The notes under the pieces were generated by a model that ran no database searches, was not told the origin of the DNA, and saw only the letters and a program-made list of their open reading frames with translations. This document shows, one piece after another, positions 1 through 31,365 of a stretch of 64,000 bases of DNA. This DNA comes from a virus: IMG/VR virus record IMGVR_UViG_3300021963_000069, positions 1-64,000 of that record; one strand, given 5' to 3'. Numbering within the stretch: position 1 is the first letter of the stretch; every line of letters begins with the position of its first letter. The position numbers were made by a program, and so were the translations under genes.

Positions 1-250
1 GCTTGATTAACCAATAGGCATTATCAATTGATTTTGCCGCCCACTGGGTACAGGGATGATTACGAAATGCCCCCTTTTCTGTAGCGTATGGCATTCCATC
101 TTTTTTAGCGAGAGTTCCATAATTATGATACCATTTGGACGCTACTATTGCCAATAGTTGGCAGCATTCAACAGGCATTTTATTTATGTGGCGGTCGGGA
201 AGTACGATAGCACTTTCTGCTGGATATGGGGAAGTGGCAAATATGTTGAT
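1..250 (-). CDS. denV: Pyrimidine-dimer DNA glycosylase/endonuclease V-like protein, 5' part (runs off window); apparent ATC start
   Basis: Hand translation: (I)NIFATSPYPAESAIVLPDRHINKMPVECCQLL...AFRNHPCTQW, which matches the MNIF...K M..E..Q.L...HPCT.W family pattern. GAGGA lies 7 nt upstream of ATC at 250. Confidence 0.75.
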   Translation of the reverse strand, partial: MNIFATSPYPAESAIVLPDRHINKMPVECCQLLAIVASKWYHNYGTLAKKDGMPYATEKGAFRNHPCTQWAAKSIDNAYWLIK

Positions 251-260
251 GGTAGGTTCC

Positions 261-782
261 TCAATTCATTAATTTAGAATAGTATTCTACCAGCATTCGT
301 AAGTCCTCAACAGAACCGTTATTTTTCATAACATTTGCTTTTCTTGACACAACAACAATATTTTCGGGAATATAACCTTTTGTATTATCAATTCTATCAA
401 GAGAGGGCGCATACTCTGTTCTCTTTACAAGAGGAACTTTAAATACTGGACACAATTCTGGAATGTGAATATCATTTTGAGTGATTGTACATTCCATATC
501 TTTTTGTTTTGCTCTTTGTCTGGCACTTCTCAACAACTGACTTTCTGGACATTTTTTAGTCCATTTTTTTTGATAATCTGGATTGTTTTTTCTCCATTCA
601 GTCATCAGTTGTTTATAGTGTTCTTTTCTTTCAGAAACATATTTTTTAGTGTGCTCTCTTTTTTCTTTTTTCCTGTAGTTTTTTCTACAGGATTTACACA
701 TACCATCACGACCTCTGACTGAATAATACCAATCAGTTTCTATAATATCAGAAGAACATTTGCGACAGAAGAATGTTTTCAT
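261..782 (-). CDS. Free-standing HNH-type homing endonuclease (HEG1)
   Basis: N-terminal CxxC/CxxC motifs and a basic linker, then CPVF..PL...PSLDRIDNTKGY..EN.VVVS..AN..K. The ATG at 782 lies just downstream of TATAAATA (803-810). Confidence 0.8.
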   Translation of the reverse strand: MKTFFCRKCSSDIIETDWYYSVRGRDGMCKSCRKNYRKKEKREHTKKYVSERKEHYKQLMTEWRKNNPDYQKKWTKKCPESQLLRSARQRAKQKDMECTITQNDIHIPELCPVFKVPLVKRTEYAPSLDRIDNTKGYIPENIVVVSRKANVMKNNGSVEDLRMLVEYYSKLMN

Positions 783-843
783 TTTATGAATATCTTTTAT
801 TTTATTTATAAAAGATATTCGCAAATATGTTCATAATAATTTA

Positions 844-1269
844 TTAAAAACAATACTTTTTGACTACATATTTTACTTCATTTGGTTTATCTTCCATCCA
901 AAATGCTTCCATTTCAATTTGCCGAATACTGGGACCAATCAATTTTACAGCAGATTCCACATCTTGCCTTCTTCTGTCAGAAAGATTCATATTAGAAGAT
1001 GAGATTCCCAAGGGAGTCAAAGATTTGTTCTTACAATATTGAGCCAAATGAACTGACTCGTGTAGTAATGTTTCGTTGATATAATATTTTACATTATCTC
1101 TCGAAACAATTCTGTCGGTACAGATATTCATAGTTTTCTTTGTGGGGTCAAACCACCCATAAATATCGTGTTTTCTACAAATTGGAGCATTTTCAACTAC
1201 TCGAATCTTGCGGGAAACCATTTGATAGATTTCCATAGATTGAGGAGAAAGATAAAATAAGAAATCCAT
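844..1269 (-). CDS. Putative zinc metallopeptidase (HExxH)
   Basis: ETLLHESVHLAQ plus a downstream EMEA motif. Confidence 0.6.
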   Translation of the reverse strand: MDFLFYLSPQSMEIYQMVSRKIRVVENAPICRKHDIYGWFDPTKKTMNICTDRIVSRDNVKYYINETLLHESVHLAQYCKNKSLTPLGISSSNMNLSDRRRQDVESAVKLIGPSIRQIEMEAFWMEDKPNEVKYVVKKYCF

Positions 1270-2429: not shown

Positions 2430-2933
2430 TTAAGGTTGTTGGTCAAGTTGTTTCTGAATGAGTTTTTGTCGCTCGTCAAAAGAAAGATTTATCCAATAAC
2501 TATGTTTTACTGCCATTTCAGCATCACTATGTTTTTTGTGACAAGTTCTACAAAGGAGACGACACTTCTCAACTTCTTTCCACCACAAGTCTAAAGAACA
2601 ACCAATATTTCCAATAGTTAGGGTTTTATGTGCTGGGTCAATATGGTCAAACTCAAGATTTTCAGTTTTTCCACACCAAACACATTTTCCTCCAAGTTTT
2701 TCTTTTGCTTGTTCTTTTAATCGTTTTCTTCGGTTGTTATTATTTTTAGTGTTTTGTTCTTTTAATTTTTCTTTGTTTTTTTCATAATACTTTAAATGCC
2801 TATCATTACATTTTTCTTTATTTTTGGAATAATATTCTCTATCAGCAAGGCGTTTTGCTTCTTTTTGCTCCTCCGTCATTTTTTGACGATATTTTTTATT
2901 GTATTCTGATTTTTCTTCTTTTGTAAGTGCCAT
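2430..2933 (-). CDS. Free-standing HNH endonuclease (HEG2)
   Basis: Basic coiled N-terminus, then CVWCG..ENLEFDHIDP...CRLLCRTCHKKH. Confidence 0.85.
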   Translation of the reverse strand: MALTKEEKSEYNKKYRQKMTEEQKEAKRLADREYYSKNKEKCNDRHLKYYEKNKEKLKEQNTKNNNNRRKRLKEQAKEKLGGKCVWCGKTENLEFDHIDPAHKTLTIGNIGCSLDLWWKEVEKCRLLCRTCHKKHSDAEMAVKHSYWINLSFDERQKLIQKQLDQQP

Positions 2934-30564: not shown

Positions 30565-31365
30565 TCAAATATCCGTTTGTTGAGTTGGGCTATATGTTTT
30601 ACTGTCAAAAAACATTTCTACCGACTCGTTGAATCCAAAATCATCATCAGGTCCGGCATCAATTGGATCTGGAGTGACAGTATATCTCATCTCTCTCTTT
30701 GCGACTTTTGGATCAGTTCCAGTATAATAATCCACCTGAACCTTACGAATGAGTCCATCTGTACTGTCTGCGACAGGACCAAACAGATATGTTTTTGCTG
30801 TAAAATTTAGTGTATATATTAGAGTTCTTCGGGTGGAATAATCTCCTTCATAATCATCCGTAAAGGAAACGCTGTCTAAAACTATTGGAATATCTCGTTT
30901 TTCTCCTATAGAATCCACCAAATCAACGGTCAAATTAAAAGATGGTTGAAAATTGGGAAGAATCTGCTCCACAACTTGTAGGGCATCATCTTGTAATTTA
31001 GTCATAATATTCAACTGAAATCCAATATTATAAGGAACCGGCATATAAACTTTCTTTATAGTATCACCATTTCCGCAAGTCTTAAATGTCTGTATTATAC
31101 TTGCTTTTCTTGTTGAGTCATACTGAATAGATGTCATCTCAAATGACATTCTTGGTAAAGTAATTTGAATTGGTTTATTTAATTCTGCCTGTTGCTCAAT
31201 TCTGGAAAGAAACTTTTGCATAGGTCCATATCCAAGAGGAACCTTCATCTGACTGATTGCTACATCAGATGAATTTTTATGTTCTATGTAAATGTCATTA
31301 AAAAGCGTTCCAAACGCAGTAACCGTCTTTCTTATAATTTGATGGTAGAAGTAGGTTCCTAGCGT
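30565..31365 (-). CDS. g15: Tail sheath stabiliser/completion protein; apparent ACG start
   Basis: The frame extends upstream of the ORF-track start as (T)LGTYFYHQIIRKTVTAFGTLFNDI, the typical gp15 N-terminus. Also contains VPLGYGP and LPRMSFE. Confidence 0.9.
   Translation of the reverse strand, partial: TLGTYFYHQIIRKTVTAFGTLFNDIYIEHKNSSDVAISQMKVPLGYGPMQKFLSRIEQQAELNKPIQITLPRMSFEMTSIQYDSTRKASIIQTFKTCGNGDTIKKVYMPVPYNIGFQLNIMTKLQDDALQVVEQILPNFQPSFNLTVDLVDSIGEKRDIPIVLDSVSFTDDYEGDYSTRRTLIYTLNFTAKTYLFGPVADSTDGLIRKVQVDYYTGTDPKVAKREMRYTVTPDPIDAGPDDDFGFNESVEMFFDSKTYSPTQQTDI

Follow-up and report, generated by a model that had tools for sequence, protein, structure and literature searches.

At the beginning of a viral contig of 93,550 bp and 36% G+C, a predicted homing endonuclease gene (HEG) lies directly ahead of a gene for a Pyr_excise glycosylase, a repair enzyme, and the conserved Met-1 position of the glycosylase reads ATC. 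The window referred to throughout is the first 64,000 nucleotides (nt) of this contig, IMG/VR virus record IMGVR_UViG_3300021963_000069, and the features of the locus are all on its minus strand (Table 1). The gene upstream of the nuclease gene is called 'up' here. The contig ends at position 1 inside the glycosylase frame, so only the first 83 codons are known, and circularising the contig does not complete the gene, as the ends do not join. The locus was compared with about 150 related loci from viral and metagenome contigs, which are numbered with the prefix L.

Table 1. Features of the glycosylase locus, listed in the direction of transcription, with positions in the window
Feature	Position	Strand	Basis or remark
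Upstream gene 'up', 141 amino acids (aa)	844..1269	-	Stop TAA 846-844; open reading frame (ORF) list; phrog_16003
Repeat copy A, recipient's own start, stranded, ATGAACATATTTGC	821..834	-	Left flank like ATG-type alleles L139 and L144
Repeat copy B, cassette's stranded first 12 nt, degenerate, GCGAATATCTTT	811..822	-	Left junctions of L003-L012 and L087
Hairpin, 13-bp perfect stem (820-808 pairs with 800-788)	788..820	-	RNA folding, -14.6 kcal/mol, z -4.2
Late promoter TATAAATA, T4-type consensus	803..810	-	Read directly; conserved in every nuclease clade at the site
Nuclease gene, 173 aa	261..782	-	ATG 782-780, TGA 263-261
TGAGGA, nuclease TGA (263-261) overlapping Shine-Dalgarno GAGGA (262-258)	258..263	-	Read directly
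ATC, inferred glycosylase start at conserved Met-1 position	248..250	-	Recurrence, contigs of three studies, selection on codons 2-25
Repeat copy C, cassette-borne new 5' gene end, ATCAACATATTTGC	237..250	-	Read directly; identity profile
Pyr_excise glycosylase, first 83 codons	2..250	-	Pfam PF03013, E 6e-9

Copies A and C form a direct repeat matching at 13 of 14 positions and spaced 584 nt apart. With up to one mismatch, the 14-mer has exactly two sites in the window, compared with 0.06 expected from shuffles, and the 12-mer has three copies (recipient, 834-821; cassette left, 822-811; cassette right, 250-237). Copy A begins nine bases past the 'up' stop, and its ATG is stranded, opening only the mini-ORF MNIFANIFYK* of 11 codons (834-802, stop 804-802). 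At copy C, ATCAACATATTTGC, the glycosylase frame opens INIFATSPYPAES..., with an in-frame TGA (268-266) six codons before the ATC, no ATG, GTG or TTG between them, and a 7-nt spacer (257-251) from GAGGA to ATC. A TGA and the absence of a canonical in-frame start ahead of the Met-1 codon are repeated in relatives. The repeat, the stranded ATG and the TGA and GAGGA ahead of the ATC can be read directly, as a sequence-only reading of this DNA had reported them. The nuclease ORF uses start and stop codons of its own and is read in another frame than the glycosylase; non-coding sequence makes up about 62 nt of the 584-nt insert, about 52 nt before the nuclease ORF and 10 nt after it.

By its neighbouring genes (gp45 sliding clamp, a DUF3310 protein and clamp-loader genes) and its best DNA matches, the contig belongs to the T4-like cyanophages (Kyanoviridae), and the isolate nearest to it is the freshwater Synechococcus phage S-SRM01. 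In S-SRM01 the stop of 'up' overlaps ATG AAT ATT TTT, the start of a glycosylase of 169 aa (MNIFVTHQFP...). Homologues of 'up' adjoin the glycosylase gene also in L082-L089, where this nuclease gene is absent and the glycosylase is uninterrupted, and in relatives without the nuclease gene the 'up' stop abuts or overlaps the glycosylase start. The closest environmental relatives, with 'up' 90-96% identical, lack the nuclease gene as well. On alignment to S-SRM01, which has the ATG, the 584-nt block is a clean insertion. The uninterrupted genes of S-SRM01 and L082-L089 thus bear out the earlier view that an HEG interrupts the glycosylase gene at its 5' end.

The extent of the element was read from an identity profile of the window against nine loci. 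Identity is 30-55% left of about 840, 80-100% from 810 to 241 and 53-87% from 240 onward, so that the cassette is about 822-237 and the co-converted glycosylase tract is shorter than 30 nt; past copy C, identity to other cassettes drops over the next 30 nt or so. Searching with the nuclease protein returns eleven loci (L003-L013) of 73-99% identity, every one directly ahead of a glycosylase gene. Even behind near-identical nuclease genes, the bodies of the glycosylase genes share only 65-82% identity. The element is mobile: it is far more conserved than its flanks, a pattern in the compared sequences indicating horizontal spread. In addition, on a tree of the glycosylases from which the first 12 residues were omitted, the ATC/ATT label needs nine changes, so the start module has passed from one gene background to another.

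At its left end the cassette carries ATGAATATCTTT and then TATAAATAA, the stranded first four codons of an ATG-type allele. Copy B has the form ATGAATATCTTT in most relatives, and in the window it doubles as the 5' arm of the hairpin. The recipient's own start is found ahead of the cassette in the window, which reads ATGAACATATTTGC and then GAATATCTTT, and in L007, L008 and L010. An insertion in codon 5 had been proposed before; codon 5 is reached by the recipient-derived copy of the window only, and the insertion point of the cassette itself is after nt 12, that is, after codon 4. A target-site duplication of the transposase type was considered and rejected, since the 12-mer copy travels inside the cassette and the copy number on the left side varies from one to two.

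Three further nuclease clades (L014-L026, L087 and L110), with 44-57% identity to the nuclease of the window, occupy the same site and restart the glycosylase in different ways. In L002, L014-L026, L045 and L048, it restarts at an ATG inside the last codons of the nuclease gene. The restart is GAGGAACTAACT followed by TTG in L110-L112, and GAGGAACCTACT followed by ATC in L087 and L088.

Recurrence of the unusual start was examined next to the Shine-Dalgarno module. All 11 close nuclease relatives (L003-L013) have ATC at Met-1, except for ATT in L012. A pattern scan of viral contigs on the TGAGGAAC motif context, with any NTN start codon allowed, gave 81 non-redundant contexts, comprising 40 TTG, 31 ATC, 10 ATT and no ATG. 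The spacer GGAACTAAC pairs with TTG, and the spacer GGAACCT[AC]C pairs with ATC or ATT. A metagenome scan adds 19 ATC and 2 ATT contexts; its single ATG match (L362) was discarded as unrelated DNA with no glycosylase. The combined non-redundant glycosylase contexts are thus 50 ATC and 12 ATT, 62 in all, with no ATG and no ATA. Contigs of three studies cover 248-250 and read ATC, with no other letter listed. A sequencing error hiding an ATG, which the sequence-only reading had named as a possible refutation, is disfavoured by these contigs and the 62 contexts. The non-AUG start proposed there is retained, but not its local rebuilding: by this comparison the ATC start is part of the mobile cassette, occurring in the cassette itself, at Met-1 throughout the close nuclease relatives apart from the one ATT, and, with ATT, in the 62 contexts.

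The start codon is coupled to the Shine-Dalgarno sequence. Among 73 non-redundant loci, a Shine-Dalgarno sequence stands at 7-8 nt in 27/27 non-ATG alleles and in only 1/46 ATG alleles; the other 45 ATG alleles overlap the stop on the 'up' side instead, as ATGA, TGATG or TAATG. Two TTG alleles, L126 and L154, have unrelated Shine-Dalgarno sequences and are independent cases. In the genome at large, Shine-Dalgarno sequences are uncommon, preceding 9 of 92 long ORFs, compared with a background of 7%. The simplest reading is that a strong Shine-Dalgarno sequence compensates for a weak codon.

The glycosylase behind ATC or ATT is intact and under purifying selection. Every complete ATC/ATT frame encodes 169-176 aa, and the aligned proteins are well conserved. 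For the whole class, the ratio of nonsynonymous to synonymous substitution rates (dN/dS) is 0.11 for ATC/ATT alleles and 0.08 for ATG alleles, values taken with saturated dS. Among 33 close ATC/ATT pairs (dS 0.02-0.6), the median dN/dS is 0.078. For codons 2-25 of the close pairs, the pooled ratio of nonsynonymous to synonymous differences (pN/pS) is 0.056. These low ratios disfavour both decay of the gene and a start at Met-25, the next in-frame AUG.

Identification of the glycosylase rests on profile and fold. The 83-aa fragment matches PF03013 (Pyr_excise) with E 6e-9 and 36.5 bits, and a full-length relative with E 2e-12 and 47.7 bits, the cut-off being 23 bits. For a full-length relative of 91% identity, the AlphaFold model has a predicted local distance difference test (pLDDT) score of 94.8. 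Compared with 48,161 chains, this model fits T4 endonuclease V (1ENJ) best, with Z 7.6 and a root-mean-square deviation of 4.0 A over 117/137 residues; the next match has Z 5.0. The 1ENJ match was found by the full VIA search only, and Foldseek with the glycosylase model gave no match. The N-termini coincide, in that position 1 of the Pfam profile falls on residue 1 and residue 1 of the model falls on chain residue 2. Residues N2, F4, T6, P10 and E28 are invariant in the glycosylase alignment, and E28 is a candidate for the active-site Glu. In T4 endonuclease V, the N-terminal alpha-amine is the nucleophile and forms a Schiff base (PMC3285167), so the exact N-terminus of the glycosylase probably matters too. 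The likeness to T4 endonuclease V (DenV) thus consists of a Pfam score above threshold, the best fold match and coinciding N-termini. On the other hand, window-type glycosylases are only about 12% identical to it and about 30 residues longer (169-176 aa), their N-terminus is Met-Asn where the T4 enzyme has a processed Thr, and their enzyme activity is predicted.

The ATC/ATT module outlives the nuclease gene. In viral contigs, the nuclease gene is intact in 10/41 ATC/ATT contexts and gone in 31/41. The 31 contexts without it have gp45 or 'up' within 120 nt, and then remnants of the nuclease 3' end, which vary in length (ORFs of 0-60 codons). L180 retains the stranded ATGAACAT besides such remnants. 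These sequences suggest a cycle of gain, decay and loss that leaves the initiation region as a scar, and we infer its direction from the graded remnants and the stranded start copy.

Several individual loci bear on the fate of the nuclease gene. L011 has lost the first 52 codons of it, and L012 has ATA for its ATG, with protein identity lowered despite 93-100% DNA identity; both are decaying copies of the same nuclease gene. In L113, L119 and L135, which have ATC or ATT and no nuclease gene, a two-codon mini-ORF, ATG AGT TGA, ends at the TGA overlapping the Shine-Dalgarno sequence. It may serve as a start-stop element that delivers ribosomes to the weak start, or be a plain deletion scar. TTG alleles without the nuclease gene (L082-L084 and L089; compare L110-L112) read TGTTTT TGAGGAACTAACT TTG. 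As this sequence fits a deletion between two TTTGA repeats, the first at the end of 'up' and the second close to where the L110-type nuclease gene ends, it is suggested that these TTG alleles are scars as well.

The nuclease protein was characterized by profiles and by modelling. The 173-aa ORF matches phrog_3322 (E 1e-30), phrog_1035, endonuclease VII (E 2e-19), and phrog_3118, HNH (E 2e-9). In Pfam no nuclease family matches it, NCBIfam gives zero matches, and a PDB sequence search with the glycosylase and nuclease queries returns nothing meaningful. At its N-terminus the protein has a CxxC...CxxC zinc ribbon, and its C-terminal domain is HNH-like. In the AlphaFold model (pLDDT 88), residues 69-173 align with PacI (Z 6.2), EcoKMcrA (Z 5.2) and Gme HNH (Z 4.2), and also with many Cas9 HNH domains, all with moderate Z values. 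Alignment A3 of the nucleases has D129, I131, D132, G136, Y137, N141, S146, A149, N150 and K153 invariant. The family motif D-R-I-D...N...N has a nearly invariant R130 where HNH enzymes usually have the general-base His, and it may be a variant active site. In the phage collection, no cultured phage has this nuclease clade or junction, the best nuclease identity being below 60%, and a 126-nt junction query matched only the gene body, in phages B3 and B23.

Expression of the nuclease gene appears to be controlled by the hairpin. TATAAATA reaches from the top of the 5' stem arm into the beginning of the loop, and an extension of the stem pairs the nuclease AUG with copy A. As judged by folding, the hairpin probably blocks nuclease translation on read-through transcripts. 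In T-even phages, a hairpin with an internal late promoter delays translation of I-TevI, segB and Aeh1 mobE (PMC2988022). Around the ATC itself, folding gives no significant RNA structure (z -1.3). The contig of 93.5 kb contains no tRNA genes, hence no phage initiator-like tRNA for AUC there.

Three observations concern the neighbourhood. The product of 'up' has a weak, sub-threshold likeness to peptidase M76 (HExxH-like 'LHESVH'), and 'up' is variably present between gp45 and the glycosylase gene among relatives. A second, unrelated HNH-type ORF of 167 aa (2430-2933, minus strand; motifs CVWCG...EFDHIDP...CRTCH) is flanked by the DUF3310 gene and the clamp-loader region.

We consider it likely that the first codons of the glycosylase gene were the landing site of a free-standing HNH homing-endonuclease cassette and that the gene now starts at AUC. 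An ATG-type recipient would have been invaded, with its own ATG (834-832) left upstream; the nuclease would be one that cuts ATG-type alleles. The cassette would have brought, in this order, a copy of the first 12 nt, the hairpin-embedded late promoter, the nuclease gene and a portable translation-initiation region. The glycosylase would then be translated from the AUC at 250-248 with an initiator Met, yielding the same MNIF... protein, and its output would probably be lower or differently controlled. That AUC can initiate is known from E. coli, where it reaches 1-2% of the AUG level and the protein begins with Met (bioRxiv 10.1101/063800). The Shine-Dalgarno sequence and AUC/AUU would be co-converted with the nuclease gene as one module, which could persist as a working scar once the nuclease gene decays.

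Several points weigh against this explanation. Initiation at AUC is very weak in E. coli, and its strength may differ in picocyanobacteria. Use of the AUC for initiation is itself deduced from assembled contigs. The HNH assignment is only moderate (Z 4-6), with Arg for the catalytic His, so that nuclease activity is plausible on the model. An exact empty-site allele with the left flank of the window was not found in viral contigs. Loci lacking the nuclease gene might, in principle, represent the ancestral state and not scars. Finally, Fisher's test of start codon against Shine-Dalgarno sequence gives p 4e-19 with no phylogeny correction, and this value is inflated because most non-ATG alleles share one TGAGGAAC module by ancestry.

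A further-reaching version is possible but rather doubtful, namely that the selfish element swaps the start of its target for a strong Shine-Dalgarno sequence with AUC or AUU, that the weak codon is actively kept, and that the lineage tolerates non-canonical starts. The weak codon might be kept because ATG would recreate the nuclease target, or to reset the dose of the repair enzyme; the missing ATG in the cassette context could reflect nuclease immunity, enzyme-dose setting or chance. Elsewhere in the window, the Met-1 position of tail gene g15 (31363-31365, minus strand) reads ACG (TLGTYFYHQ...). In related viral contigs, the non-redundant contexts of this codon are 14 ACG, 1 ATT and 20 ATG, which makes it another conserved non-canonical start in this genome. 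Together, the ACG of g15 and the ATC of the glycosylase suggest that non-canonical starts may be a wider trait of the phage group. The ACG of g15, an essential tail gene, hints at relaxed start proofreading in the host or during infection in this freshwater/estuarine lineage.

Among the other explanations, termination-reinitiation has the most in its favour, though we regard it as unlikely. Ribosomes that complete the nuclease ORF or a mini-ORF at the UGA within the Shine-Dalgarno sequence would restart 10 nt downstream on the AUC, and synthesis of the repair enzyme would then be tied to translation of the selfish gene. The TGA overlaps GAGGA in the window and in nearly all loci with the module, and where the nuclease gene is missing, that TGA often closes a very short ORF such as ATG AGT TGA. 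However, the glycosylase is intact in several loci without the nuclease gene in which no start codon lies in the frame ending at the TGA (ORF length 0), and in nuclease clade L110 the nuclease stop is a TAA further on. Reinitiation coupling is therefore not required, and it may add to Shine-Dalgarno initiation; of this alternative from the sequence-only reading, a possible aid is left, not a general mechanism. A fusion of nuclease and glycosylase by +1 frameshift or read-through was discarded, as loci without the nuclease gene have no long upstream ORF.

It is very unlikely that the glycosylase is dead or dying, with its frame intact only since the insertion is recent. The poor performance of AUC in E. 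coli would be in keeping with such decay, and some invasions are indeed recent, the nuclease copies being 88-99% alike; yet all 62 ATC/ATT contexts that reach the stop have full-length frames, dN/dS between close ATC/ATT pairs is 0.08-0.1 with codons 2-25 included, and the allele lasts long enough for nuclease deletion in 31/41 contexts. The decaying frame that the sequence-only reading had foreseen as another refutation is at odds with these intact frames and ratios. Selection also speaks against a truncated protein starting at Met-25. The ATG at 178-176 is the first canonical in-frame start, but it has no Shine-Dalgarno sequence ahead, and codons 2-25 are strongly constrained in ATC/ATT lineages (pN/pS 0.056). 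The residues it would lose include the invariant N2, F4, T6 and P10, the Pfam profile and the fold start at residue 1, and the N-terminal amine is catalytic in T4 endonuclease V, making this start highly improbable. Nor is it at all probable that the insert is removed, by an intron, ribosome bypassing or precise deletion between the repeats rejoining the ATG. The 13/14 direct repeat does bracket the insert, and deletion between its copies would restore MNIFATSPYP; splicing and excision had been named as alternatives before. Against this, an Rfam scan (E up to 1) finds no intron family, the roughly 62 non-coding nt of 584 are too little for a ribozyme core, and many ATC/ATT loci lack any upstream ATG copy. 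The only joint that crosses the insert in an RNA library, from 220 to 846, has 42 other letters and mismatches, so it represents a relative without the nuclease gene and not a spliced form. Rare deletion between repeats is possible but would leave the gene silent in genomes keeping the insert.

The homing of a cassette with its own initiation region can be compared with known systems. Free-standing homing endonucleases that carry signals for a neighbouring gene are a known kind; what is new here is a free-standing HEG cassette inside the first codons of its target, with a near-cognate start. The T4-like seg and mob HEGs, which home without introns (PMC2988022), resemble the present case in the patchy occurrence of a nuclease gene between, or at the edge of, conserved genes and in co-conversion of flanks. 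They also share with it the late promoter in an RNA hairpin that delays nuclease translation, as in I-TevI, segB and Aeh1 mobE, and the placement of signals for the displaced downstream gene in the end of the nuclease gene, as with the gene 32 promoters inside segG. In contrast to seg and mob, the embedded signal here is a translation-initiation region and not a promoter, and the element has gone into the target ORF itself, behind codon 4, with the first 12 nt of that ORF duplicated. In place of AUG there is AUC or AUU, the module outlasts the nuclease gene as a scar, and cleavage is predicted.

Insertion of HEGs also gave rise to genes in pieces, as in Aeh1 nrdA, split by mobE, and T4 gene 60/39. 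There, too, a selfish nuclease landed in a coding gene whose function was kept by new signals. No two-subunit protein results here, however; four codons are cut off and replaced by a duplicate, giving one full-length protein.

For the start codon itself, the nearest parallels are infC and pcnB of E. coli, which are AUU-initiated (bioRxiv 10.1101/063800). As in those genes, a near-cognate AUH at a conserved Met-1 is kept by selection and probably sets a low or regulated rate of initiation. Different from them are the AUC occurring as well as AUU, the phage repair gene concerned, the horizontal arrival of the codon with a mobile element, and the putative use of the start. To our knowledge, hardly any natural AUC starts have been described in bacteria and phages. 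We know of only two confirmed non-canonical starts in E. coli, both of them AUU.

In dozens of wild phage genomes, a near-cognate codon stands at the putative start of a repair gene that is conserved, and the ATG, TTG, ATC and ATT alleles of this gene provide ready-made comparisons. Gene callers will truncate or miss such genes, possibly including others in the lineage such as g15. If the cassette homed as described, a homing endonuclease would have a route into a coding region without an intron or intein, by carrying duplicate first codons and a spare initiation region, and this spare initiation region would stay as a lasting mark on the expression of the host gene.

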